This document shows, in pieces, positions 1-12,282 of a stretch of 12,282 nt of DNA (positions are counted from its first letter, which is position 1; the number at the start of each line of letters is the position of its first letter). The notes under the pieces were generated by a model. The model had not been told where the DNA came from, did no database searches, and worked only from the letters and a program-made list of their open reading frames with translations. The stretch covers positions 1 through 12,282 of the forward strand of contig JANLOX010000088.1 in NCBI GenBank assembly GCA_031366795.1, read 5' to 3'. The stretch is from Candidatus Eiseniibacteriota bacterium. GTDB taxonomy: Bacteria > Eisenbacteria > RBG-16-71-46. The position numbers and the translations under genes are program-made.

Positions 1-748
1 GCCAGTTTCTGGAGCGACAGCTTCCACAGTCGCGAGCGATGACCGTTGCTCCCGCCCCCATCGGCGGTAATGAGCAACTCGCTCGCCCGTGGGAACCGGC
101 GCTGGCCCATTTGGACCCACCAGCGTCGGATGCTGTTGGTGGCGAACGGGACGGTGTCGTGGTCGATGCCCACGCTGACCCACCCCTGATTATTGAAGAG
201 ATCATAGACGCCATAGGGAATGGCCTTGCCCAGGGACGGATCGAGAAAGTCATGCACGCGAACCGCTTCGGGTTCTCCGACGGGTCGCCACTCTTTCCCC
301 GCGTTTCGAAAGGCTCCCACCAGTTCTTTCTTCTTGGTGTCGACCGAGATCGCCGGTTGGCGGCGCACCAGGAAACGACTGACACTGGCGCTGATGTATT
401 CGAACTGGGCATTGCGGTCCGGATGCGCAGCGCCTTCGAGCGTCTTCCGATTGCCTGCAGGCTGTAGCCTTCCCGGATCAACAATGCCGCGACCGCACGC
501 GGACTGACAGGATGTTCCTGGTGCGTCAGTTCCTCGGCGAGTCGGCGCGTGCTCTTGCACGTCCAGCGCAAGGGGGATTCCGGGTCTCCACGCGTCCCCG
601 GCTCAACCAACGCTTCCAGGGCCCTCAACAACTCCGGGTCATTCACCGTGAGCGACCGACGCCCACCGCCGGGCCGTCGGACACGAGTTGCGTTGACGGC
701 GCGTTGCTTCGAAGGCAAGGCAAGCTCTCGCAATGCAGTAGACAGCAT
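1..748 (-). pseudogene. ISAzo13-family DDE transposase, frameshifted and apparently N-terminally truncated (partial)
   Basis: Manual translation. Frame A (748-455): MLSTALRELA...RVRRPGGGRR...LEALVEPGTRGDPESPLRWTCKSTRRLAEEL...GYSLQ. Then a 1-nt loss at ~453-454 (CAG GC AAT where the family has Q-A-N). Frame B (452-3): NRKTLEGAAHPDRNAQF...ISVDTKKKELVG...VHDF...KAIPYGVYD...GWVSVGIDHDT...LLITADGGGSNGHRSRLWK. An in-frame TAA at 766-764 precedes the ATG at 748. Not listed in the ORF track. Confidence 0.9.
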
Positions 749-753
749 TATTT

Positions 754-777
754 GAAAAGTTATTTATGCGCTAGCCC
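754..777 (-). repeat. Putative left terminal inverted repeat of the ISAzo13-family element
   Basis: AT-rich GAAAAGTTATTTATGCGCTAGCCC followed by TAAG, immediately upstream of the transposase. It resembles the GTTATTT...CCTAAG ends I recall for this family. The partner IR is not in the window. Confidence 0.55.
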
Positions 778-815
778 TAAGGGATCCTTCCCTGTTCCCT
801 AAAATCGCCGGCGGG

Positions 816-2660
816 CTAGGCCGCCCTGGCCATACCACCCGTGTCGAACGCCAGCGCGGCGGCCGCCGCATCGGCGTCCGTCACCGTCGGCAACTCGATC
901 TCGAAGGTGGTTCCCTGCCCGGGCTCGCTGATCACGCGGATCACGCCCTTGTGTTCATGCACGATGCCGTAGGAGACCGACAGCCCGAGGCCCGTTCCCT
1001 GGCCCGAGGGCTTGGTGGTGAAGAACGGCTCGAAGATGCGCTGTTGGATGTGCTTCGGAATGCCCGGGCCGTTGTCGCGCACGCGGATCTCGACGCGGCC
1101 GCCGATCCACGGGCTCACCTCGACCAGCACTTCGCCGGGGCTGCCGTTCATCGCCTGCTGCGCGTTAAGCATCAGGTTCATCAGCACCTGCTGCAGCTGG
1201 TTCGCGTTGCCCTGGATCCTCGGCAGCGACGTCGGCACTATCTGTACGAGCGTCACTTCGGCGAGCGCCAACTGGTGACGCATGATCGCCACGGCGTCGT
1301 TGACCACGGTGCCGATGTCGACGGGTCCCAGGCCGACCTTCTCCTGCCGCGCGAAGCGCAACAGGTTGTCAATGATCGCGCGACACCGACGTGTCTCCTT
1401 CTCCACGGTCTCGAGATTTTCGTTGAGCATGGGGACGTCGTACCGGGTGCGGCGCATCAGTTGCACGAGCCCGAGAATTCCCGCGAGCGGGTTCTTGACC
1501 TCATGCGCGACGCCGGCGCCGAGCTGGCCGAACGCGGCCATCTTCTCGGACTGGACGAGCTGGCCCTCGGCATCCTTCAGCGCTTGTTCACGCGCGTTGA
1601 GCTGCCGGCCCATCTGCGTGAACGACTCCGCCAGCGTGCCGATCTCGTCGCGCGAGTTCACCTTCACCTCGACGTCGAAGCGGCCCTTGGCGATTTCGCG
1701 CGTCGCCTCGACCAGCTTGGCGAGCGAACGGGTGAGCGACTGCGACCACAACATGCTTACCACCGCTGCAAACGCGAGCAGCAGCAGCGCCACCCACAGC
1801 AGGCTGCTCAGCAGCTGCCGCGAGGCGAAGTACGCGGTCGCACTCGGCACCTCGGCGGCGGCGATCAGGTTCGTGCCCTCCACCGGCGCGTAGCCCGCAA
1901 TCTTGTCGCCTTTCGGGTCCGAGATCTCGCGAACGAGTGCGGCGCTGTTGCGGCCCAGCGTCGGGATGCCCGCCAGGCGCTCGCGATGCAGCACCCTCGA
2001 GGCTTCCCTGTGGCTCAGCAGCATGTGGCGGTTGTCGGCAATGTAAACATTGAACGAACGCGAACGCGTCGCGATGTTCATCAGGTCATCGAGACGCAGC
2101 ACCGCGGACATCACCAGCGGCACCGAGCCCTCGCGTTTGTGCGACACGGCGATCGCCAGCGTGGGGAGCCGGCTGCCGACGGTCGAGTTCTCGACGTAGG
2201 TCTGGCCCTCGATGATGGCCGCGAAGGGCAGCGGATGCTCTGCCCGGTAGTGCTGGAGGTCCGACGGCGTGATGCCACCCTCGTGCAACGAGGCCTCGTC
2301 ATACACGGACGCCAGCGGCGTCCCGCGCGCATAGGCCGTCAGCGACACGAAGCCGTGGAACCCTTCGAGGACGTCCTGGACCAGCGCGGTGCGCTGCTCC
2401 GCGGACAGTTTGGGATCCTCGAGCAGACGCGCGCAGACATCGAGCCGGTCGCGGTACGACGCGATGACCGCCTCGGTTTCCTGCGCGGCATGCGTCGCCT
2501 GCACCGCGCTCAAGTCGCGCACGTAGATGCTCTTGTCGGCGTGGAACATCTGCGCCATCGTGAAGGTGATGGTGCTGACGACCGCCGTGACCACCAGCAG
2601 CACGGCCAACAGGATTTTATAGCGGATCGGAATTCCAGCTGCTCGTGGCATCTCGAACAT
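816..2660 (-). CDS. Sensor histidine kinase (2 TM, periplasmic Cache-like sensor, HAMP, HisKA, HATPase_c; NtrB-like class)
   Basis: TM1 ILLAVLLVVTAVVSTITFTMA; TM2 LLWVALLLLAFAAVVSMLW; HAMP ...EIAKGRFDVEVKVNSRDEIGTLAESF; H-box AGVAHEVKNPL; N-box QLQQVLMNLMLNAQQAM; G1 DNGPGIP; F-box IFEPFFTTK; G2 GTGLGLS. An alternative start at 2651 has better spacing from the G-rich SD at 2661-2670. Confidence 0.95.
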   Translation of the reverse strand: MFEMPRAAGIPIRYKILLAVLLVVTAVVSTITFTMAQMFHADKSIYVRDLSAVQATHAAQETEAVIASYRDRLDVCARLLEDPKLSAEQRTALVQDVLEGFHGFVSLTAYARGTPLASVYDEASLHEGGITPSDLQHYRAEHPLPFAAIIEGQTYVENSTVGSRLPTLAIAVSHKREGSVPLVMSAVLRLDDLMNIATRSRSFNVYIADNRHMLLSHREASRVLHRERLAGIPTLGRNSAALVREISDPKGDKIAGYAPVEGTNLIAAAEVPSATAYFASRQLLSSLLWVALLLLAFAAVVSMLWSQSLTRSLAKLVEATREIAKGRFDVEVKVNSRDEIGTLAESFTQMGRQLNAREQALKDAEGQLVQSEKMAAFGQLGAGVAHEVKNPLAGILGLVQLMRRTRYDVPMLNENLETVEKETRRCRAIIDNLLRFARQEKVGLGPVDIGTVVNDAVAIMRHQLALAEVTLVQIVPTSLPRIQGNANQLQQVLMNLMLNAQQAMNGSPGEVLVEVSPWIGGRVEIRVRDNGPGIPKHIQQRIFEPFFTTKPSGQGTGLGLSVSYGIVHEHKGVIRVISEPGQGTTFEIELPTVTDADAAAAALAFDTGGMARAA

Positions 2661-2668
2661 CCCCCCTC

Positions 2669-4051
2669 TCAGAACTTCGCTTCGATGACCTTCGACTTGT
2701 AGGCCGAGTTGCCGACACGATCGATTGCTTCGACCACGACCACATTGAATCCACGCTTCAACTTGACGGTGCGCTCGAACTTGCCGGAGCCATCGATGAC
2801 GGCCTTCTCACCAGCAACGATGATGCGGATGCCGGGGTCCGTGGTTCCGCGCACGATGCATTCACTGCCGTTGACGACGCTCGCCGGGAAATCCACCTTG
2901 AGGCCCGGCTGCCGCTGGACGCTCGAAACCACGACCGTGCGCGGCTGCGACGGGGCGCCTTCGGCGCCTGCGTGCAGCGCGCTGACACGCCAGTAGTAGG
3001 GGCCGCTCTTGAAGTTGCCGTAGACGAAGTCCGTCGCGGCCAGGCGCTGGTCGATCACCACGCCCTGGAACTCCGGGCTGCGCGAGACGCGCAAGCGATA
3101 ACCGTCGGCGCCCGGCACCGTATTCCAGCGGAAGGTGACCTGCGGCGACAATTCGCGATAACTGAACGTGGCCCCGCCCGCCGGTGCCAATAGAATGGGC
3201 GCATCGGGCAGTGTGGCAGGTGCTGTGGCGCCGCGCAGCGAATCCACGGTGATGAACTGGTTGGCGCCGATATGCACGGTGCGGCCCAGCGAGACCACGT
3301 CGGCGCTCCCGTGATAAACGGACACGATGGAACGCTTGTTCCTGCCCACCGCGACCCTGAACTGCGCCGGGGCGCCGCTGGAGGACGACACGCTGGTCTC
3401 GGCGCCGGGCGAAGTGACTTGCACCGCGCCATGGTCCTCGCCCTCGCTCGCCACATTGCCCCACAGTTCGCCCATTTCGACATGCACTGAAGTGGGGGGA
3501 TTCAGCGTCTCCACCTCGGAATGGCTGGCGCGCACGATCATCAGCGAGTTCTGCTCGAGTTGCAGGTGTTTGCCCTTGCTGAAGGTCAACATCGCCGTGC
3601 CGTCGCGGGTCGTCTGAACGGCATCGCCTTCATGCAGCGGCGTCCCCGAAGGCACGGCGCCCCACACGATGCCGTCGGCATCCTTGCGCATCACCTGCGT
3701 GTTGAGCACCGTCAGCATGGCGGCGGCGGGATTGAGTTTATCGCCTAGATTGCCGAGGTCTTGCAGCGACGCCGTGAAATTGTGCCGTCCCCCGTCGCCC
3801 TGCGAGCCGGGCTGCATCAATTCGTGCATGGTCAGCCCGGAGGGAATCAGCGCCGACATGGCGAGCATGAACACCGCGAAGAAGGCCAGCGCCACCAGCA
3901 CCGAGATGATGACCTCGGTGCCGGCCGTGACCATTCGCCGCACGCGGCCGATCACGGACGCCGCGGGAGTGCCGTTGGGCGCGGATGCAGGAGGTCGCTT
4001 CGCTTCGGCTGCGGTGCCCTGCTCTGCCCCGCGTGGATCGCGGTCGGTCAT
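2669..4051 (-). CDS. Single-pass membrane FecR-domain protein with FN3-like and C-terminal Ig-like domains
   Basis: Short N-tail and a TM helix (VIISVLVALAFFAVFMLAMSALI). FecR-like signature LHEGDAVQT...AMLTF...LQLEQNS...VEMGELW...QFRV...VSVYHGSADV. FN3-like segment APILLAP...VTFRWNTVPGADGYRLRVS...YYWRVSA. Ig-like segment VRGTTDPG...GFNVVVVEAIDRVGN. GGAGG SD lies inside the last codons of the upstream gene. Confidence 0.85.
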   Translation of the reverse strand: MTDRDPRGAEQGTAAEAKRPPASAPNGTPAASVIGRVRRMVTAGTEVIISVLVALAFFAVFMLAMSALIPSGLTMHELMQPGSQGDGGRHNFTASLQDLGNLGDKLNPAAAMLTVLNTQVMRKDADGIVWGAVPSGTPLHEGDAVQTTRDGTAMLTFSKGKHLQLEQNSLMIVRASHSEVETLNPPTSVHVEMGELWGNVASEGEDHGAVQVTSPGAETSVSSSSGAPAQFRVAVGRNKRSIVSVYHGSADVVSLGRTVHIGANQFITVDSLRGATAPATLPDAPILLAPAGGATFSYRELSPQVTFRWNTVPGADGYRLRVSRSPEFQGVVIDQRLAATDFVYGNFKSGPYYWRVSALHAGAEGAPSQPRTVVVSSVQRQPGLKVDFPASVVNGSECIVRGTTDPGIRIIVAGEKAVIDGSGKFERTVKLKRGFNVVVVEAIDRVGNSAYKSKVIEAKF

Positions 4052-4052
4052 C

Positions 4053-7000
4053 TCAATACCTCCCCTGCGCGCGAACGAACCATCCGCGCACGGAGTAGTC
4101 GTTCCTCGAGAACTCGCTATCCGAGAAATCCGTGAAGTTGTAGCCGCCCCCGACGCGCATGTTGCGCGTGAGGTCGTAGGTCAGTTCGTTGAGCCAGCCC
4201 TGCCGCCGGTCATGCGCCTCGCGCTGGCCAAGCACGCGGTACTCGACGCCAAACCGCAACGGCCCGCGCACGGCCGTGCTGACGCGGCTCAGCATCAGGG
4301 AGGTGCGCGTGCGCGCTTCGGGGCTGCCTTGGGAGCGTTCGCGCATCGCGCGCAAGGCGCCCTTGCCGCTCCACTGCACCATGGCGTTCAGGTCGACGGT
4401 CGCCTCGGCGGCGAACACGTCCATCAGGGTGCCGGCGTGGGAACTGTCGGCGCCCACGCTGGGGCCCATTTCGTCCAGCCGAGTGTAACGCGCGACACCG
4501 TTGATGCGGTCGCTGGTCAGCGGCCGGTAGGCGAGCCCGAGCGCGTGCTCCTGGAAGCGCGCCTCGTCGCGGCCCGACACGAGATCGCGCGTGCGGCTGT
4601 AGCGGAAGTCGCCGAGCACCACGAGGTTGTCAGTGAGCCGCGACTCGGCGTGATCGGTCCACAGCACCTGGCGCCGCTCGAGCGCGCCGTGATCGCGACG
4701 CCACTCGGCCCGCGAGGAGACATGCAGGTCTTCTTGCGGTGACCATGCGAAACCACCGGCCAGCGCGCTGCGGCGCGTGGCGCCCGCGACCGCCTGGGTC
4801 TGCCCGTACTCCCCGCTGGCAAACAACGTGGTACCGGCGCCGCGCTGCCACTGCTGTTGCAACCCGATGAGCGAAATCCTGCGCGATCCCGCCGCGGCCT
4901 GCTCCCACTGGTACTCGCTGTAGGCGCGGCTACCGCGGCCGAACGGCGTCTGGGCACCGAGCACGGTCGCGGCAGTGTGGGCATGCGTGTCGTCGGTGAG
5001 CCGCTGGTTCACGTACACGCTTCTGCCCCCACCGGTGGCAAAGGTTGCGCCGCCCTGCAACGAATTCCCGAGCGAGCCCGTCACGCCCCGCGCGTCGAGG
5101 GCGAGGTGCTGCGTCAGTTGGTATTGCAGGCTCGCACGACCCTGGTCGTTGCGTGGCCCTCCGAACGTCGACTGCTGCTCGAGCCGCGCGCTCAGCCTGG
5201 CCGAGGGCTTGAACCACACGCTGCCCGTGCCATAGCTCGAGCGATCCGTCATGCGGCGCACTGCGTCCTCGAAGCTGCGCGCCTGGAACTCCGTGCCGAA
5301 GCCCCAGCGCCCGGCATCGTGCGCGAATGACAACGCGGCGAGGTTCGAGACGCGCCCGTTCGCCACGGTGTCGGCGGGTGAGCGGAACTGCTCATCGCGA
5401 TCGAAATGCGCGCCCAGCTTGTCGTGCTTGGTGAGGCCGACGTTCGCGCTGACGCCAGCCTTCTGGGTGCCGCGGTCCTGCGTGCTGCCGTTGGAGAAGA
5501 AGTCGTGCTCGACGCGCTTCACGTAGGCCTTGAGCATGGCGCGATCGGGCGCGCCGAACCACTCGCCCACGTCGAGATCGGCCGCGGCCTTCCACGCCTT
5601 GCCTTCCTTGAGACCATTGGGCGTCTGCTCCTGGAAGCTCACGCCACCATCGAGGCTCGAGTAGACGCGCGACGATGCGCCATTGCTGCTGGCGAGTTCG
5701 CCTGAGATGCGCGAGTTGCGCCCGGCGCGCAGTTCGGCGTCGGCACCGTGCAATTCGTAGCCCCCCACGCCCACGTCGTCCTTCAAGTAGGTGCCGCCGA
5801 GTGCCATGTGATCGCCGAGATGCTGCTGCACGTGACCGCCTGTTGCGGAGCGGTCGAGCCCCTGAATGCTCGTCTCGTAATCGATCTCGATGGTCACGGG
5901 GCTGCCGGGCAGCAGGGTGGTGCTGACGAGGCTGCCGTCATCGAGCACGCTGGCGACGGGCCGCGAGAACAGGATACGGCCTTCGCGGTACTTGACGGTG
6001 TAGTCCATGTTGCGGCGCTGCGGCATGCGCGCGATGACCAGACCGGTCGTGGCGTCGCGCACCGCGAGTGACACCTGCTCGCTGCCCTCGACCAGATCAG
6101 GGTGACTCAAGTAGTAGACGGAGCCGCCTGTCCCACGCAGCTCGTCGCGCACATGCACCTGCGAGGCCTCGGCGCCGAGCAGCGCAATCGTGGTGCGCGG
6201 CTGGCCATAGCGCGTGCGCGAGACCGAGTGGTACTGGACGCGCGCGCCATACAGCGTGCGCTGGAATCCCGACAGCTCGGTGTCGTTGAGCGACATGGCG
6301 TAGTTGCCGACCAGGGCCTGGAACTCATCGCTCTCGACCGCGAGGAAGAACCGGCCCTGCGCCTGCGCATCATAGACCATGCTGCTCGAGTCGCCGTAGA
6401 CCGGATAGAGCCGGTCGGGATCGAGATTGGTGAGCAGGCGGTCGTTGGTGTTGTCGTCGACATCAACCAGGATCTTCTCGAACCCGCTGGTGCGCGTGTC
6501 GAACGCCGAGGTCACGAGATACTTGCCGGCCACGTAACCCTTCAAGTAGTAGGCGAGCCGGCCATCGGCGTAAAAGCCGGTGTTCGCGAGCCGCCCCGCG
6601 CCATCGACGAAGCCCTTGCCGCGCAGCTGCCCGAGGGTTCCGTCAGCCAACCCTAAGAAGAACAGCTTCTGCGGCACGCGCACGACATCGCGCTCGAGGG
6701 TGGAGATCTGGCCGGTCTGGTCGATGGCCTGGATCAGCATATGACTGGAGCCGCGCGGCAGTGGCGCCGAGTAATGGAAGCTGCCATCGACGCGCACCGG
6801 CACGTCCTGGCCATTGACGCGCACATGGTTGCCGGGATTGGTGACGCCGGAGATCGGGTAGGTGTCGCTCATCAGCGGCGCGTCCACCGGCGGCAGCGCC
6901 ACGGTCAGGTCCGGCTGGCGATCCACGGCGATCAAAAGCTTACCGCCGGCATCTTCATTCGCGACGGTCAGCAGCAAGTTGACGAGACGCGTGGCTCCCG

Positions 7001-9965
7001 CGGCATTGCGCACCATCACGCCGTAGGTGTTGTAGCCGAGTTGCAGGTCGAGCGTGGCGTGGAACAACCCGGTCGTGTCGGCGAAGAACTCGCGCTGGTC
7101 CAACTGCACGAGGTTGCCGGGCGCGGTGCGTCCGACCAGCTGGCACGTGCCGACCGGCTCGCTACCCGCTTCGTCAGCGCCACTGCTCAACCGCAACGCG
7201 CCGGCCGTAACGCCCGGAGCCAGCGGCGCCACGCGATAGGGCCCCTCATTTGCGCCGAATGCCACGCGCTGCGTTCCCAACGGCTGCAGGATTTCCACAT
7301 CGGGCAGCGGCACGGCCGAGTGAATGACGCGTCCCGCGGCATCACGCACGAGGATGTCGATCCGCTCGACGCTCGCCGGAACCTGCGTGGCGAAGCGGCC
7401 GCCGGCATCGATCGACAGCGTGTCACCATTGATCTTCACCAGCGGTTGGCGGCGCTGGCGGTCCGTGATCTGCGCTTCCTGGCGATCGACCATCTTGCCG
7501 TGGATCTCGACGCGACGGTTTTTCTCACGCCCCGCTTCCGTCGCATTCGTCGCCACCGGGCGCGCCTCGCCGTACCAGCGCAGCACGAGCCGGTCCTTCG
7601 GGATCTGCTGCTCGTCGGTGAGGAAGGCCGCAGCCGACTTGGCTCGCGCTCCGGACAACGCGAGGTTCAACTCCGCCGGACCCACCGAGTCGGTGTAGCC
7701 CTCGATGAACACGGTCTCGCCCGGATGGCGACGGATCAGGTCGGCCACCTTCGTGAGCGCCTCACGCGCATCCGCGCTGAGCACCGCGTTGCCGCTCTGG
7801 AATGCCTTGCCGGTCATGGTGAGCGCGATCGTCGTCGAGCGGTCGACGCCGAACGTGCGCACCGGACTCGAGGCGCGAATGCCGTCGCGGTAAAGCAGCG
7901 ACAACTGGTACTGGTGGAGCTCCCCGCCGCTCAGGCGCGTGCCGTCGTTCTTGACGCCATCCCACGTGACGGCGCGCGGCGGCGGTCCTTCGCCTTCAAA
8001 GGTGCGTTCGATGTCTCCCTGTGCGCCCATGATCGTGAAGGTCCAGGAGCGGATGAACTTGGGATCGTTGGCCGAGATCTCGAAGCGCAAGGGGCCTGCC
8101 AACTGGCGGTCCTTGATCTGCACCGATTCCGAGAGGCCCGCGATCGACAGCCTTACATCGCCGTCCGGCAGCGTCAGCAGGTCACCATTGAGCAGCAGCT
8201 TCGGGCCTTCGACCGTGCCGACGAGCATGGCCGGCTCGGGCGTGGCTTGGCCGGCGATCTCGAGCCCGGGCATTGCAGGCCTGCCCGAGCGCAGGGTGTC
8301 GCGAACCATTTCGATCCCGAAGTTGGCCTTGGCCAGCAGACCCGGGCTCACGGTGACAAGGCGTGTCTGCTCGGTCGTGGCATGCGCCACCCCCGGGATG
8401 CTCGCCACATCGATCTTGACCACGCGGTCGCCCGGGCGAATGCCCGCGATGTGGTAGAGCCCGTGGTCGTCGGTGAGCGCGTAGGTGCCATCATCGAGTG
8501 CCACCTTCGCCCGCGCGACACCGCCTTCGTCGCGGCCCTGGCGGCCGTCGCGATCATGATCGTCGAATACGCGGCCCACGATCGTGCCGAGGCCAAACAT
8601 TTCATCCACGCGCACGCGCACTCCGGCTTCGCCCGCATTGGAGAGCAGACAGGCATCGCACACGTCACGCGCAATGGCGACGTTGCGGTAATACCCAGGC
8701 GTCGCCCCCGAGCCGACGACGAGCTGGTAGCGCAGCGTGACATAGCCGGGCTCACCCGGATCGGCCTGGCCGTTGGCGTTGGCATCCACGAATGCCGGCA
8801 CGGTGCCGAGCACGAAGGTCAGGGGTCCTGACCCCAGCGGGTCGGCCGCGTGGACGCCGTCCACGGAGGCGGAGCCTCGCAGGTACTTGAAGTCGGCGGG
8901 CGGCTGGTCCTCAACGCGAACGTTCGACACCGGCCACGCGATCGTGTTGCGCAGCACGACGGTGTAGTTCACGACATCGCCAATGACCACCTCGGCGCGA
9001 TCGGCGAGCTTCTGCAGCAGCAGCACTTCGCGCTGCGTGAACGCCACGGTGGGGTGCATGCCGACGGTCAGCGCGTCGCTGGTATCGCGCGCGGAGATCG
9101 TCGAGATGCCCGCGAGGTTCGAGCGGATCGTGCCCGTCACCCTGCCGGCGCTGTCGGTGAACGCCACCGGCTGCGCCAGCACGTCGGCCGCGCCGCGGTC
9201 GGTGGTGAACACCACGCCGCGGCCGGGCAGCGGAATGCCGGTGCCATCGCGCACCGTGGCGGTGATGGTGCTGAAGGCTACGCCATCCGAGAAGACGACC
9301 GGCGGATTGACAGTCACGGTCGATTGCGTCGTGTCCGGCAGCGCGTAGACGCGCACGGTCATGCTGTTGGCATCCGTCGCATCGCCATCGGCATCACCGA
9401 TGGTGGAGGCGCGCGTGCCGCCGATGCTGACGGTTGACGAGCTGAAGTCCGCAATGCCATCGATGCCGGGAACGCTCGCCGACACATTGATCTGGAGGTG
9501 TGCGGTCGTATCCGCGAGCGGCTGGCCGAAGCGCACCGTCACGGTGGATCCCGCAACCGTGGCACAGTACTGGCCGGAACCGGGGTTGGGGCAGCGGGCG
9601 CTGAGCGCCACACCGGAGACCGTGACGGACAGCACGGCGAAATTCGCGTAGCCCGCAGGTGCCGTCAGCGCCACCTGGTCGAGCGATGGATCGGACGGCA
9701 GCACCGTCGCGAGCAGATCCCACGTGAACACGTTGCCCGCGCTGCCTGCGATCACGCGCGTCGGCGCGATCTCGGCGGTCGATGCCACACCGGGCACGAC
9801 CTGTCGGGTGAGTGTCACCATGGCTTGTGACGAATCGAGCGGCACACCACCGGAGACACCGGTTGCGGCGTTCGATACGCTTTGTGCGCGCACCGGCTGC
9901 GCGGACGCAAACAGCAGCGCCAGCAGCAACGGAATCTTCCAACGCATCAGCTTGAGGGAGCGCAT
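4053..9965 (-). CDS. Giant secreted outer-membrane protein: Ig/Big_1, DUF11, SdrD-B-like, FlgD-Ig, OmpA-like, Ig repeats, large C-terminal beta-barrel
   Basis: Sec signal peptide ending VRA|Q. Big_1/invasin-like domain ~9039-9340 (STITATVRDGTGIPLPG...TDSAGRVT). Complete DUF11 ~8605-9030 (LQK...VNYTVVLRN...EDQPP...YRNVA). SdrD-B-like ~8310-8590 (IVGRVFDDHDRDG...EGG). FlgD-Ig ~7850-8095 (VTWDG). OmpA_C-like ~7498-7825 (IEGYTDSVG...NLALSGARA...GEARP...NRRVEI). Alternating amphipathic strands from ~6670 to the C-terminal GWFVRAQGRY (aromatic beta-signal). Confidence 0.9.
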   Translation of the reverse strand: MRSLKLMRWKIPLLLALLFASAQPVRAQSVSNAATGVSGGVPLDSSQAMVTLTRQVVPGVASTAEIAPTRVIAGSAGNVFTWDLLATVLPSDPSLDQVALTAPAGYANFAVLSVTVSGVALSARCPNPGSGQYCATVAGSTVTVRFGQPLADTTAHLQINVSASVPGIDGIADFSSSTVSIGGTRASTIGDADGDATDANSMTVRVYALPDTTQSTVTVNPPVVFSDGVAFSTITATVRDGTGIPLPGRGVVFTTDRGAADVLAQPVAFTDSAGRVTGTIRSNLAGISTISARDTSDALTVGMHPTVAFTQREVLLLQKLADRAEVVIGDVVNYTVVLRNTIAWPVSNVRVEDQPPADFKYLRGSASVDGVHAADPLGSGPLTFVLGTVPAFVDANANGQADPGEPGYVTLRYQLVVGSGATPGYYRNVAIARDVCDACLLSNAGEAGVRVRVDEMFGLGTIVGRVFDDHDRDGRQGRDEGGVARAKVALDDGTYALTDDHGLYHIAGIRPGDRVVKIDVASIPGVAHATTEQTRLVTVSPGLLAKANFGIEMVRDTLRSGRPAMPGLEIAGQATPEPAMLVGTVEGPKLLLNGDLLTLPDGDVRLSIAGLSESVQIKDRQLAGPLRFEISANDPKFIRSWTFTIMGAQGDIERTFEGEGPPPRAVTWDGVKNDGTRLSGGELHQYQLSLLYRDGIRASSPVRTFGVDRSTTIALTMTGKAFQSGNAVLSADAREALTKVADLIRRHPGETVFIEGYTDSVGPAELNLALSGARAKSAAAFLTDEQQIPKDRLVLRWYGEARPVATNATEAGREKNRRVEIHGKMVDRQEAQITDRQRRQPLVKINGDTLSIDAGGRFATQVPASVERIDILVRDAAGRVIHSAVPLPDVEILQPLGTQRVAFGANEGPYRVAPLAPGVTAGALRLSSGADEAGSEPVGTCQLVGRTAPGNLVQLDQREFFADTTGLFHATLDLQLGYNTYGVMVRNAAGATRLVNLLLTVANEDAGGKLLIAVDRQPDLTVALPPVDAPLMSDTYPISGVTNPGNHVRVNGQDVPVRVDGSFHYSAPLPRGSSHMLIQAIDQTGQISTLERDVVRVPQKLFFLGLADGTLGQLRGKGFVDGAGRLANTGFYADGRLAYYLKGYVAGKYLVTSAFDTRTSGFEKILVDVDDNTNDRLLTNLDPDRLYPVYGDSSSMVYDAQAQGRFFLAVESDEFQALVGNYAMSLNDTELSGFQRTLYGARVQYHSVSRTRYGQPRTTIALLGAEASQVHVRDELRGTGGSVYYLSHPDLVEGSEQVSLAVRDATTGLVIARMPQRRNMDYTVKYREGRILFSRPVASVLDDGSLVSTTLLPGSPVTIEIDYETSIQGLDRSATGGHVQQHLGDHMALGGTYLKDDVGVGGYELHGADAELRAGRNSRISGELASSNGASSRVYSSLDGGVSFQEQTPNGLKEGKAWKAAADLDVGEWFGAPDRAMLKAYVKRVEHDFFSNGSTQDRGTQKAGVSANVGLTKHDKLGAHFDRDEQFRSPADTVANGRVSNLAALSFAHDAGRWGFGTEFQARSFEDAVRRMTDRSSYGTGSVWFKPSARLSARLEQQSTFGGPRNDQGRASLQYQLTQHLALDARGVTGSLGNSLQGGATFATGGGRSVYVNQRLTDDTHAHTAATVLGAQTPFGRGSRAYSEYQWEQAAAGSRRISLIGLQQQWQRGAGTTLFASGEYGQTQAVAGATRRSALAGGFAWSPQEDLHVSSRAEWRRDHGALERRQVLWTDHAESRLTDNLVVLGDFRYSRTRDLVSGRDEARFQEHALGLAYRPLTSDRINGVARYTRLDEMGPSVGADSSHAGTLMDVFAAEATVDLNAMVQWSGKGALRAMRERSQGSPEARTRTSLMLSRVSTAVRGPLRFGVEYRVLGQREAHDRRQGWLNELTYDLTRNMRVGGGYNFTDFSDSEFSRNDYSVRGWFVRAQGRY

Positions 9966-9966
9966 G

Positions 9967-10584
9967 TCAGTTGACCCTCACGCGGAAGCGAATCGCGATG
10001 CGCGTCATGGGCGGAATGAGCCCTGGCTGGTTGGCCTGGCCTGTGACGCCGCCCACAGTGAGCCGGTCTCTGCCTAAGGAGCCTCCGGAGTCGACGATTG
10101 AAGCAATATCGTCGGGAGCTCCCGTGTCATCGGTGAGAGGTGTCCACGTGGCGTTCCATACCGCTGCGTCGCTCGAACCGCTGGCCACCGTGGTGACGGC
10201 GAGCGAATTCGGGACGTACGTGAACTGCGACTCGTTCAACGGGTCCGTCAGTTGCAGATCGTCGATCGGGTACGGTGTGGCGTTATCGACGTACAACACG
10301 AAGTACAGGTCCTGACCTGCGGCAACGCTACCGCCACCGGGCAACACCACTCCCCTCAGATCACGCGCCTGTTTCACCAGGGCAAGATCCGTCACGTTAA
10401 ACGTGACCAAGGCCGGGCCTGTGCCGTCGCCGCCCAGGAGGGTGCCGTTGTCGGTTCCGCCAATACCGCCCTTCACCGCATTCGTCGCAGCGTGGGCCGG
10501 CACTGATCCGGTCAACAAAGCCCATCCCAAGAGCACGAATAGCCAGTACTTCAGCCGTGCCAGGGGTGTGTTAGTGCAGGTCAC
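9967..10584 (-). CDS. Secreted DUF11/isopeptide-type fimbrial-like subunit (putative minor pilin)
   Basis: GTG start; signal peptide ending AHA|A; DUF11 pattern LALVK...FVLYVDN...LTDPLN...FTYVPNS; ends AIRFRVRVN. Clear paralogue of 10673-11254. The start codon is less certain because there is no obvious SD. Confidence 0.85.
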   Translation of the reverse strand: MTCTNTPLARLKYWLFVLLGWALLTGSVPAHAATNAVKGGIGGTDNGTLLGGDGTGPALVTFNVTDLALVKQARDLRGVVLPGGGSVAAGQDLYFVLYVDNATPYPIDDLQLTDPLNESQFTYVPNSLAVTTVASGSSDAAVWNATWTPLTDDTGAPDDIASIVDSGGSLGRDRLTVGGVTGQANQPGLIPPMTRIAIRFRVRVN

Positions 10585-10613
10585 AGTCGTTCGATACGCT
10601 CGTTAAGAGTCTC

Positions 10614-10660
10614 GCGTGCATGCACGGGCGCGAAGGATTCGCGTCACAGCATCCGCACGC
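10614..10660 (-). promoter_or_regulatory. Long imperfect intercistronic stem-loop downstream of the first operon gene (mRNA stabiliser or partial terminator)
   Basis: mRNA-sense GCGTGC-GG-ATGC...CGCGAA-TCC-TTCGCG...GCAT-GCACGC. Outer arms 10655-10660/10614-10619 and 10649-10652/10620-10623; inner hairpin 10629-10643. No U-tract follows. Confidence 0.5.
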
Positions 10661-10672
10661 AGCCTGACGTCG

Positions 10673-11254
10673 TTACTGAACCTTCACGGTGAACAGCACA
10701 GCCCACACCTTGCTCGCCGGAACCGTGACCAGACCGTTACCCGCAGACGCACCCGCGCTGATGGTCGTGCCCGTGATACCCGCCACGTCCGCACCGCTCA
10801 CCGCATCGCTCAGCACCGCTGCCGCATTCGCTGCCGCAAAGATCGCCGCGACCGTCGAACCGGTGTTCACGGTGTTGCTGACACGGATCGTTCCCGGCTG
10901 GTAGACGAACGCCGCGTTCAGCGCATCGACCACGTTGACCGAGTCGACCGGGACGGCCGTCGTGTTGTCCATGTAGATGAGGAACTTGACCGGCGTGCCC
11001 TTGGCGACCGTCGTGTTGTTCGCGATCGGCGTGCCGTCGGTGAGGAATGCCGCCTTCACGAGCGACAGCTGCGTCGAGTTGATGGTGAAGATGTTCGAGG
11101 TCCCGAGGTTGGTGGCGTTACCGGCGATATCACCGCTCGCCTGGTTGTCCGCCGCGAACGATTCGTGCGGCGCAAACATCACGGACGCGACGAGAACGAG
11201 ACTGGTTGCCGCGATAAACTTCGCGACGCGAAGGGACCACGTGTGCAACTTCAT
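10673..11254 (-). CDS. Secreted DUF11/isopeptide-type fimbrial-like subunit (putative major pilin), 193 aa
   Basis: True start is most likely the ATG at 11254 (MKLHTW...), preceded by GGAGGAG. Signal peptide ends SFA|A. DUF11 pattern LSLVK...KFLIYMDN...VVDALN...FVYQPGT; ends AVLFTVKVQ. Ala/Thr/Val/Asn/Gly-rich and beta-rich composition. Confidence 0.9.
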   Translation of the reverse strand: MKLHTWSLRVAKFIAATSLVLVASVMFAPHESFAADNQASGDIAGNATNLGTSNIFTINSTQLSLVKAAFLTDGTPIANNTTVAKGTPVKFLIYMDNTTAVPVDSVNVVDALNAAFVYQPGTIRVSNTVNTGSTVAAIFAAANAAAVLSDAVSGADVAGITGTTISAGASAGNGLVTVPASKVWAVLFTVKVQ

Positions 11255-11258
11255 GCTG

Positions 11259-11265
11259 CTCCTCC
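11259..11265 (-). promoter_or_regulatory. Strong Shine-Dalgarno site of the putative major pilin
   Basis: Minus strand reads GGAGGAG-CAGC-ATG. Confidence 0.8.
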
Positions 11266-11477
11266 GAGTTAAGTGAACGCTCATCAATGAGCGCCGTGTG
11301 AAACACCAAATGACGGAACGCGTCGCAGTGACGCGCGCCCGCCCAAAGCAGAACTGAAATTCCCCATGCGCGAATGCACGACAGATCGCGCGACACTCGC
11401 CGCGAGCCACGGAACCGCACATGGGACTACCGCAAACTGTTATCGGCCAGAGGGATGGGGGTTCTGCACCAGTGTCT

Positions 11478-11567
11478 GGGGCCGGCGGCAGGGGGCGGCT
11501 AGGGCTATGGGGGGCAAGGGTATGCGGGGGGGGGCGGGGGCGACTGCGGTGGAGCGGGCGCCGGGGG
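11478..11567 (+). repeat. G-run-rich low-complexity tract (potential G-quadruplex; includes G9) in the divergent intergenic region
   Basis: G runs: G4 11478, G5 11491, G3 11502, G6 11509, G3 11518, G9 11526-11534, G5 11536, G3 11556, G5 11563. Confidence 0.6.
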
Positions 11568-11616
11568 CGGTCTATGCTCGTCGTCCCCCAGTCGTTGGAT
11601 AAACAGGCGTGACCTC

Positions 11617-11622
11617 GGAGGA
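11617..11622 (+). promoter_or_regulatory. Shine-Dalgarno site of the divergent gene
   Basis: GGAGGA, 8 nt before the ATG at 11631. Confidence 0.75.
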
Positions 11623-11630
11623 ACTCGGTG

Positions 11631-12282
11631 ATGCGCGTGAGCTCGCTCGTAGTGAGCGCCCTGTGCGGAATGGCGCTCTCGGCCGCCGCGTCGACAGCAA
11701 TGGCGCAGATCGGGCCGCCTGATCCCGCAAGGACCACATTGCAGAGTCAGTACATCGCGGTCGTCGGATCCACCAACGGCACACCCGATGCGTGTGGCGA
11801 TACCCGCTGCGGCAACTTCAACGTCACGGTTCGCGACTACGCCAACAACGTACTGCCTGGCATCACCGTGACCATCGACTTTTCGGCTTGCCCGGATATC
11901 CAAATCGCGTGCGATCAATTGACGGCGACCACGGGGCAGACTTATCTCGGCGGCGGAAAGGTCAGCGGCGTCACGAACTCTCTCGGCCAATTTACGTTCC
12001 GCGTGATCGGCGCATCGAATGCCGTGCCGACCAGTTCGAACACGACCTCTCCAGGTTCATTGATGAACACGCCGTGTGCGCAGGCGTATGAGGGCGGCGA
12101 GGCGCTCTCGCCGGTTTTGATTGTCGCCGCTTACGACGTGAATGGACTCGGCTCCCCCAACGCCGCGGTCAACGGAGCAGGCGCGTCGCTGGTCGGCGCG
12201 GAAGTCGTGAAGGTCGGGCTCGGCGCGACGCCACATCCGCGCGATGACTACAACAACAGCAACAGCGTCACCGGCCCCGATG
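11631..12282 (+). CDS. Secreted Cys-containing Ig-like protein with dockerin/EF-hand-like C-terminal motifs (partial, runs off window)
   Basis: Open frame from the ATG at 11631 to the window end, missing from the ORF track: MRVSSLVVSALCGMALSAAASTAMA|QIGPPDPARTT...FNVTVRDYANNVLPGITVTIDFSACPDIQIACDQ...GVTNSLGQFTFRVIG...AAYDVNGLGSPNAAVNGAGASL...RDDYNNSNSVTGPD. Has an SD and a signal peptide. Confidence 0.88.
   Translation, partial: MRVSSLVVSALCGMALSAAASTAMAQIGPPDPARTTLQSQYIAVVGSTNGTPDACGDTRCGNFNVTVRDYANNVLPGITVTIDFSACPDIQIACDQLTATTGQTYLGGGKVSGVTNSLGQFTFRVIGASNAVPTSSNTTSPGSLMNTPCAQAYEGGEALSPVLIVAAYDVNGLGSPNAAVNGAGASLVGAEVVKVGLGATPHPRDDYNNSNSVTGPD

Follow-up and report, generated by a model that had tools for sequence, protein, structure and literature searches.

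The 12,282-nucleotide (nt) stretch of DNA described here, called the window throughout, is an entire contig of a metagenome-assembled genome of a Candidatus Eiseniibacteriota bacterium (Table 1). Five genes on its minus strand, g1 to g5, encode a small secreted protein, a paralogue of that protein, a giant outer-membrane protein, a FecR-like single-pass membrane protein, and a sensor histidine kinase. Together they form a conserved module whose likely product is a modular surface fiber, a reading to which we give a probability of about 0.55. The first-pass annotation of this DNA, made from the letters alone, had proposed a self-contained fiber-assembly pathway distinct from the known pilus classes. 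A conserved module outside those classes is borne out by the analysis below, but self-containment is not. All five open reading frames (ORFs) are co-directional with intergenic gaps of 88, 1, 1, and 8 nt from g1 to g5, as originally described and as the ORF coordinates confirm. A GGAGGA Shine-Dalgarno sequence lies 6 nt ahead of the ATG codon of g1, and AxA-type signal peptides can be read directly from the sequences of g1, g2, and g3.

Table 1. Genes of the window and the parts of their products.
Feature	Residues	Window positions	Strand	Remark
Window		1-12,282		whole contig C43 of metagenome-assembled genome G000 (4.18 Mb, 474 contigs)
g1, 193-residue secreted small subunit		10673-11254	minus	candidate shaft subunit
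g1 signal peptide	1-34
g1 donor-like N-terminal segment	35-62	11069-11152		invariant Asn-37
g1 truncated CLIPPER/DUF11-like acceptor domain	63-193	10676-11068		Lys-67, Asp-110
g1-g2 spacer, 88 nt		10585-10672	minus
g2, 205-residue paralogue of g1		9967-10584	minus	GTG start; candidate adaptor subunit
g2 signal peptide	1-32
g2 donor-like segment	~33-66			own class (ATNAVKGGIGG...GDGTG)
g2 acceptor domain	~67-205			Lys-71
g3, 1970-residue giant outer-membrane protein		4053-9965	minus
g3 signal peptide		9885-9965
g3 donor-like N terminus	28-54	9804-9884		Asn-32
g3 Big_1		9084-9326
g3 DUF11/CLIPPER	316-371	8853-9020		PF01345 23.8 bits (cut-off 24.6); TIGR01451 44.9 bits (cut-off 24)
g3 SdrD_B		8403-8576
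g3 OmpA-like	722-817	7515-7802		PF00691 69.4 bits (cut-off 27.2)
g3 Ig (Glucodextran_B-like)		6681-6914
g3 C-terminal barrel domain	1101-1970	4056-6665
g4, 460-residue FecR-like single-pass membrane protein		2669-4051	minus
g4 hydrophobic helix	~45-75			read by eye
g4 periplasmic FecR-like domain	144-250	3302-3622
g4 C-terminal Ig domain	382-459	2675-2908
g5, 614-residue sensor histidine kinase		816-2660	minus
g5 HAMP	307-355			51.6 bits
g5 HisKA	379-440			56 bits
g5 HATPase_c	485-592			102.9 bits

A scan with a profile of the small subunits, taking one genome per species, returned 14 loci. The full order g1-g2-giant-FecR-like-kinase was observed in eight of these (L041, L043, L044, L046, L048, L049, L051, and L053), which represent Eisenbacteria, Nitrospirota, Terriglobia, Woeseia, and unclassified bacteria. 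Another four loci (L040, L045, L050, and L052) are cut by contig ends and are consistent with this order in their visible part, and the other two deviate. In all complete loci g1 is followed by a g2 orthologue. Conservation of the order across phyla means that the adjacency of the five genes is not due to chance, and the conserved module first suggested by a single sequence stands up to comparison of gene neighborhoods. A query with the barrel domain of the giant matched 21 of 41 relatives' genomes, with full-length orthologues (>40% identity) only in G001, G009, and G023. The giant-FecR-like-kinase block is common to these three genomes, and the g1-g2-giant block is common to G001 and G007. 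Orthologues of g4 follow the giant in G001, G009, and G023 and in eight loci of the species scan; the FecR-like and kinase genes do travel with the giant, as had been surmised. In six loci (L041, L045, L048, L049, L050, and L036) a hybrid kinase of ~720 residues with receiver-GAF-HisKA-HATPase-receiver architecture is encoded directly before g1. This kinase is not encoded in the window, and in many loci a large adhesin gene stands before it.

The products of g1 and g2 are paralogues with 36% sequence identity. Each has a conserved segment at the mature N terminus, which we call the donor-like segment or donor, followed by a body that we call the acceptor domain. Homologues of g1 of ~190 residues number 132, and all of them are unnamed or labeled "TIGR01451 family." In an alignment of the g1 family (n = 50) the mature N terminus reads A-(D/T)-N-x-(A/G)-(T/S)-G...G...S-N; Asn-37, Gly-41, Asn-97, Asp-110, Asp-150, Asp-156, and Asn-173 are invariant, and Lys-67 is present in 49 of the 50 sequences. 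The donor segments of g1 and g2 are 28-34 residues long with Asn as the third mature residue. The mature N termini of g1 (ADNQASG) and g2 (ATNAVKG) are polar, and the C termini of the two proteins (...FTVKVQ in g1 and ...FRVRVN in g2) have no hydrophobic tail. In an AlphaFold2 (AF2) model of g1 the predicted local distance difference test score (pLDDT) is >90 for residues 63-193, and residues 35-62 are unstructured with a pLDDT of 47-60.

No Pfam or NCBIfam family matches g1 or g2 above threshold. The g1 protein has no match to TIGR01451 or PF01345, and g2 matches TIGR01451 at an E-value of 0.031 only. Weak PF01345 matches are found in 16 of 50 g1 family members (best E-value 8.6e-5), and alignment of the g1 family with the DUF11 domain of g3 by hhalign gives an E-value of 1.3e-4. 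The solved folds nearest to the g1 body are isopeptide adhesin and pilin domains (best Foldseek E-value 7.6e-3), with VIA Z values of 8.9 for PrgB, 7.6 for BcpA, 7.1 for RrgB, and 6.9 for the CLIPPER domain 9IFR. These Z values are middling, yet the list of matches is dominated by one kind of domain. A search of PDB sequences with the subunit profile gave chance matches only (E-value 0.55). Going by these remote signals, we regard g1 and g2 as remote DUF11/CLIPPER (CnaA-like) domains. Model alignments and profile matches agree with the earlier description of the small proteins as DUF11-like and "permuted," in the sense that their ends are shifted relative to the canonical repeat. A search for longer proteins containing g1 yielded three matches. 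One of them, P0273, is probably a gene-call fusion of the upstream hybrid kinase with g1, because an internal Met codon and a signal peptide are present.

Domains of the g1 type also terminate much larger proteins. Such a domain lies 0-3 residues from the C terminus in eight complete large proteins of the loci and in P0274 and P0275, and in 7 of these 10 proteins the profile match lacks the donor, with its first aligned position at 57-63. The large proteins that end in this way are β-helix/SdrD_B adhesins. In the sister genome of the same genus (locus L034; G001:C52), a 2021-residue adhesin encoded at 4957-11022, 18 nt past the kinase gene, consists of SdrD_B and β-helix parts, a full DUF11 domain, and, at the C terminus, a domain of the subunit type; its gene is the module's sixth and is missing from the window. 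In the source genome the best candidate for a tip adhesin is a 652-residue secreted protein encoded on contig C39 (6105-8063, minus strand; L003 1498-3453), with an N-terminal part of ~380 residues that has no assignment, followed by one full DUF11 domain (53.8 bits) and, at the C terminus, a domain of the subunit type. Several large proteins bearing an acceptor can occur in one genome, as with the 583- and 872-residue proteins of G007 and several in G001. The locus is not self-contained, because the five genes do not include those for proteins of the tip-adhesin class, which lie after the kinase gene in L034 and, as a candidate, on C39; in addition, the hybrid kinase is found upstream in many loci. 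An OmpA-domain protein is encoded close by on C39 (1710-3995).

The mature N termini fall into three conserved classes, those of g1, g2, and the giant, all of which include an Asn residue. In all 10 loci where the giant adjoins g1/g2, it starts after the signal peptide with a related segment of the form x-x-I-x-N-x-A-x-G...G..LD...VTLTR, in which Asn is the fifth mature residue. The 4001-residue giant of G009 is without this donor motif, and its residues 106-823 match, at 51% identity, residues 288-1039 of the 2021-residue adhesin that G001 encodes as a separate protein. Small subunit genes were found neither in G009, a genome 88% complete, nor in G023, which keeps the giant, FecR-like, and kinase genes. 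The distribution of the two elements, with acceptor-only adhesins, donor-plus-acceptor small proteins, and a donor-only giant, suggests a head-to-tail fiber. It follows the same logic as the chaperone-usher pili. In locus L047, where g2 is absent, the giant (992-6484) has a g2-type mature N terminus (AATNAVTGGIGG...GDGTG); judged by its sequence, this protein looks like a natural fusion of the adaptor segment onto the anchor.

A possible structural basis for this pattern emerges on comparison with complete domains of the family. We built a canonical DUF11 model from 45 domains taken from the fetched loci. Its isopeptide triad is Lys-8, Asp-42, and Asn-99, with the same spacing as the triad Lys-715, Asp-748, and Asn-806 given for 9IFR in the available part of PMC12617251. 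The body of g1 aligns to positions 11-78 of the model, and Lys-67 and Asp-110 are at the canonical spacing. Reading on by eye, outside any alignment, g1 appears to end near model position 90, before the Asn strand. Asn-37 and Lys-67 of g1 are 30 residues apart, and the same 30-residue spacing is found at the junction of the full DUF11 and acceptor domains in the C39 protein. In the C39, L034, and L037 proteins the alignment to the subunit profile also takes in the final strands of the full DUF11 domain that stands before the acceptor.

The C-terminal 870 residues of g3 have no Pfam or NCBIfam match. They belong to a family of 2825 representative clusters at E ≤ 1e-3 (889 at 1e-30), for which the atlas search returned only clusters that are unnamed or labeled "hypothetical" or "outer membrane protein." The domain lies at, or a few residues from, the C terminus in most of the 150 best matches listed; in at least three of these (P0213, P0230, and P0231) the best-scoring stretch ends ~90 to 780 residues before it. 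Complete proteins of the family reach 7600 residues, and some of the listed matches are fragments of 400-900 residues. Most members have a long N-terminal passenger and no small subunit genes nearby. An AF2 model of the domain, built with 32 sequences, has a pLDDT of 79.3 and is almost all β; its long strands number ~42, domain residues 183-233 form a small insert, and one loop is disordered. A Foldseek search with this model returned generic outer-membrane barrels only (MtrB, BtuB, SprA, LptD, and SlpA; TM score ≤ 0.25). The C-terminal part of g3 thus models as a very large barrel of ~42 strands with no close solved match, in line with the first-pass annotation. The sequence NRRVEI, which includes the NRRVE motif of OmpA-like peptidoglycan-binding domains, is present in g3.

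Two observations concern giants at other loci. In L043 (11194-17042) and L044 (5936-11895) the giant is encoded in two ORFs, of 1005 and 962 residues and of 1306 and 675 residues, respectively, probably as the result of a frameshift or an assembly error; in the near-identical locus L046 it is a single ORF of 1954 residues. The distant giants of L021, L025, L026, L031, and L033, with barrels only ~30% identical to that of g3, start after the signal peptide with G-T-P-I-D-N-T-A...S-N-T-V-R-x-I-V, which resembles the N terminus of the subunits and also the last strands of DUF11.

The g4 protein has a short cytoplasmic N terminus of ~45 low-complexity residues, and no anti-sigma-type cytoplasmic domain was found in it. 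Its match to FecR (PF04773) reaches 20 bits, short of the cut-off of 24, which three of six orthologues pass. FecR sensor proteins work with an ECF sigma factor through a cytoplasmic anti-sigma part; by its sequence, g4 is FecR-like in the periplasmic domain only. At its C terminus g4 has an Ig domain with 30% identity to the one just ahead of the barrel in g3 (E-value 3e-11). The g5 protein has a periplasmic region of ~250 residues between two hydrophobic segments, and its HisKA and HATPase_c domains are those that define a two-component sensor histidine kinase. Neither the window nor the related loci examined contain a sigma factor gene, and there is no response regulator gene within the window.

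We propose that the conserved N-terminal segment of each part would insert into the truncated last DUF11/CLIPPER-type domain of the preceding part. The assembly order would be tip adhesin, g1 in one or many copies, g2, and giant, the chain terminating on the N terminus of the giant outer-membrane protein. Since the g1 body appears to stop before the canonical isopeptide-Asn strand, the donor would supply the two missing strands and perhaps the isopeptide Asn as well. Lys-67 and Asp-110 of one subunit could then lock covalently onto Asn-37 of the next, as in SpyTag/SpyCatcher. The N-terminal stalk of the giant would reach the surface through the protein's own ~42-strand barrel, which may also release the subunits, and the OmpA-like domain would clamp the base of the fiber to peptidoglycan. 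The FecR-like protein, with its Ig type common to the giant, and the kinase would sense or regulate the fiber. Polymerization, covalent locking, export through the barrel, and signaling are steps that we infer. We favor the head-to-tail chain by a small margin over its absence and hold the covalent lock between subunits tentatively, at somewhat less than even odds. In its fullest form, the proposal is of a new class of Gram-negative pilus with no chaperone, usher, sortase, or ATPase. A CLIPPER/DUF11 catcher split by evolution and a two-strand Asn tag would click together covalently outside the cell, a ~42-strand barrel, of the largest class, would be the anchor as well as the translocon for itself and the subunits, and the load on the fiber would be reported to the FecR-like protein and kinase; we consider this full form doubtful.

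Several observations weigh against a head-to-tail fiber with a split domain. The gene for the tip adhesin is absent from the window, and the head-to-tail contact between the parts is itself something that we infer. The donors match positions 85-117 of the canonical model at E-values of only 0.6-9, in 8 of 13 subunits and in an inconsistent register, and a model of the tandem junction aligns across donor and acceptor in just 1 of 13 (g1 of L048, E-value 8e-4). The body of g1 (residues 63-193) is modeled confidently without the donor, so the domain may be complete alone. The invariant Asn-173 could, from its conservation, be an internal partner of Lys-67; we considered a Lys-67-Asn-173 pair of the canonical intramolecular kind and dropped it as the preferred pairing, the model alignment placing the canonical Asn past the end of g1. 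The distant giants carry a similar motif (GTPIDNTA...SNTV) without a nearby small subunit gene, so the N-terminal motif may have another role. The OmpA-like domain is in the middle of the g3 chain, so that under the topology we assume the chain must cross the membrane through the barrel. Finally, two of the 14 loci of the species scan deviate: in L042 a g1 stands alone ahead of an AcrB-type gene, whereas L047 has g1 and the giant without g2, the FecR-like gene, or the kinase and is followed by a transketolase gene.

The alternative that survives best is a fixed four-part adhesin, with a single copy each of tip, g1, g2, and giant, in which the small proteins are adaptors for swapping heads and g1 does not bind to itself. 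The donors of g1, g2, and the giant form three distinct classes, which suggests ordered, specific pairing. Fused forms without a repeated shaft are known from the giant of G009 and from L047, and the presence of several different acceptor-bearing large proteins in one genome (G007 and G001) also fits exchangeable heads. Nevertheless, the g1 acceptor resembles the acceptors of the tips (profile E-values 1e-36 to 1e-46), and a donor that fits the tip should therefore fit g1. The separation of g1 from g2 by 88 nt, together with its strong ribosome-binding site, is reminiscent of a major subunit, although this is suggestive only. Complex prediction with three copies of mature g1 (residues 35-193) scored 0.00 twice; run without controls, it speaks neither for nor against binding. 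On balance we consider the fixed adhesin unlikely.

A second alternative is that the giant is a self-sufficient, autotransporter-like adhesin that tethers the outer membrane to the cell wall, with g1 and g2 as co-regulated but unjoined secreted or periplasmic proteins, for example caps, chaperone-like helpers, or matrix components. The barrel family of 2825 clusters, mostly without nearby small subunit genes, is in keeping with this idea, as are G009 and G023, in which the giant is kept together with the FecR-like protein and kinase and small subunits were not found. However, it leaves unexplained the subunit-like segment that the giant carries in 10 of 10 g1/g2 loci and lacks in G009. Nor does it explain why a subunit domain without a donor ends the adhesins, why the head of the G001 adhesin is fused into the G009 giant, or why the L047 giant bears a g2-type donor. 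These points make the self-sufficient giant quite improbable. That the locus encodes an envelope-sensing device, in which the giant reports surface or wall stress to the FecR-like protein and kinase in the manner of FecA-FecR and the DUF11-like proteins are periplasmic partners, is in our view very improbable. In its favor, no genes accompany this subfamily of giants more constantly than the FecR-like and kinase genes, g3 and g4 have an Ig domain type in common, and much of the giant is placed in the periplasm by its OmpA-like domain. Against it, g4 is without an anti-sigma domain and has no sigma factor gene nearby, the β-helix, SdrD_B, Big_1, and DUF11 modules and the fused heads point to the surface, and the donor/acceptor pattern is left unexplained.

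The modular fiber that we favor is set apart from the established pili by the factors that it lacks. Scans of the five proteins against Pfam and NCBIfam detected no usher (PF00577) or PapD-like chaperone (PF00345) at E ≤ 0.1, no sortase, prepilin peptidase, or assembly/secretion ATPase family, and no CsgA/B repeats or CsgG; no autotransporter family was detected with Pfam. The C termini of g1 and g2 are not of the LPXTG type, and g1 models as a β-sandwich. The signal peptides of g1, g2, and g3 are of the AxA type with no class III (prepilin-type) signal, and there is no Cys at their cleavage sites to form a lipobox, unlike in the type V pili (FimA/Mfa1). These domain scans and signal peptides thus support the original observation that factors of the chaperone-usher, type IV, type V, sortase, and curli systems are missing, and the module is outside these known pilus classes.

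Chaperone-usher pili are built from a tip (FimH or PapG), a shaft (FimA or PapA), a terminator (PapH), an usher (FimD or PapC), and a chaperone (FimC or PapD), and the usher barrel has 24 strands compared with the ~42 modeled for g3. Their logic of an acceptor-only tip, donor-plus-acceptor shaft and adaptor subunits, a chain-ending subunit, and a barrel, as set out in the available parts of PMC11821415 and PMC9715654, is like that of the parts here, including the dedicated outer-membrane barrel. In contrast, g1 and g2 have a CnaA/CLIPPER-like fold rather than the pilin Ig fold that lacks the G strand, and the role of terminator would fall to the barrel protein. The closest solved folds are those of the sortase pilins (SpaA, RrgB, BcpA, and EbpC), which have CnaA/CnaB-type domains with Lys-Asn isopeptides. 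The sortase pili are linked covalently between subunits by transpeptidation, whereas any link here would be spontaneous and made through a split domain; moreover, those pili are Gram-positive and the present host has an outer membrane.

Type Va autotransporter adhesins combine, as g3 does, an N-terminal passenger and a C-terminal barrel in one chain; their barrel has 12 strands, and the passenger is presumed to pass through its lumen. In g3, OmpA-like and Ig domains precede the barrel, and separate subunits would extend the passenger. Barrels approaching the size of that modeled for g3 were predicted from contact maps by Solan et al. (2021; PMC8346858), who describe single barrels of 38 and 40 strands that exceed every solved barrel in size. 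The two families (002 and 003) comprise 1194 and 849 sequences, and the available part of that paper assigns them no function, operon, subunits, or role. The likeness of this superfamily to the g3 barrel is by description only, as given in that part of the paper.

The CLIPPER/DUF11 domain (PF01345; PDB 9IFR), which occurs in fibrillar adhesins, forms an intramolecular isopeptide bond (Costa et al. 2025; PMC12617251). As presented in the available part of that work, CLIPPER is a complete domain with the bond within one chain of a single-polypeptide adhesin. Among the adhesins that it mentions is a Gram-negative one bearing an "OmpA-like anchoring domain," and "barrel" is absent as a word from the main text. 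In the window the domain appears to be two strands short, with the Asn segment on the N terminus of a partner; g3 has one such domain, and g1 and g2 are remote relatives of the same fold class. A head-to-tail precedent is offered by the archaeal thread Saci_0406 (Gaines et al. 2022; PMC9715654), for which the available part of the paper describes Sec-type subunits with a strictly conserved mature N terminus that are joined by donor-strand complementation without a chaperone or usher. A spontaneous isopeptide bond in which the N-terminal segment takes part, from the α-amino group of Asp-24 to Asn-57 two subunits away, is proposed there. The thread, as described in that source, differs from the present system in having no outer membrane or barrel anchor and in belonging to another fold family. 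The tafi filament was also considered and set aside as an analogy only, since its domain is given as DUF1102, not DUF11, in the available part of PMC11821415.

No description of the operon was found in a literature search, for which most subscription journals were beyond reach. If the modular fiber is correct, it would extend the surface-fiber pathways of diderm bacteria beyond the five textbook pilus classes, in Eisenbacteria, Nitrospirota, Acidobacteriota, and Gammaproteobacteria, and would give a function to the huge unannotated family of giant barrels (2825 clusters) and possibly to the 38/40-strand superfamily too. How BAM folds a barrel of ~42 strands, and how the stalk threads through it, would then become questions to answer. 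The donor and acceptor would amount to a natural modular ligation pair akin to SpyTag/SpyCatcher, in which three classes of tag would be mutually specific, and an adhesive fiber coupled directly to a two-component sensor might constitute a surface-sensing device.

Regulatory elements were sought by several scans of the window. RNA structure in the g1-g2 spacer was no stronger than in shuffled sequences (z = 0.40). A scan for the sigma-54 pattern gave 19 matches against 15.2 expected, none of them upstream of g1, and a sigma-70 scan found no promoter-like site. Terminator-like sites numbered 4 against 7.0 expected, with none inside the g1-g2 spacer, and the Rfam scan gave no family matches. For the sequence 4053-11400, all 10 datasets listed with matches are DNA (sediment and freshwater metagenomes) and none is RNA.

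Both ends of the contig carry additional coding sequence. Beyond g5 lies a broken transposase fragment of the Rhodopirellula DDE type (PF07592, 66.5 bits; ISAZ013-type), split over two overlapping frames (2-748 and 3-560, both minus strand) and extending past the contig end. One extra base after position 754 was present in all four metagenome runs compared at the transposase. The sister genome has its adhesin gene at this place, and the transposase may therefore mark a break point of the locus. On the other side of the module, a divergent gene for a secreted protein (11628-12281, plus strand) has a signal-peptide-like start and a weak Big_1 hint (E-value 0.08) and runs off the contig.

Two further contigs of the source genome carry related sequence. 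Contig C452 (3551-5708) holds a second copy of the region 12282-10139 of the window, comprising the upstream region with the divergent secreted-protein gene, g1, and part of g2, and stops at the contig edge. The copy has 85% nucleotide identity, with 94% protein identity for g1 and 97% for g2; it comes either from a second locus or from a variant strain within the bin. Contig C231 (495-7990, minus strand) encodes a paralogous giant of >1951 residues, open at the contig end, with a barrel 27-30% identical to that of g3; a separate gene for a 547-residue OmpA-domain protein comes next.

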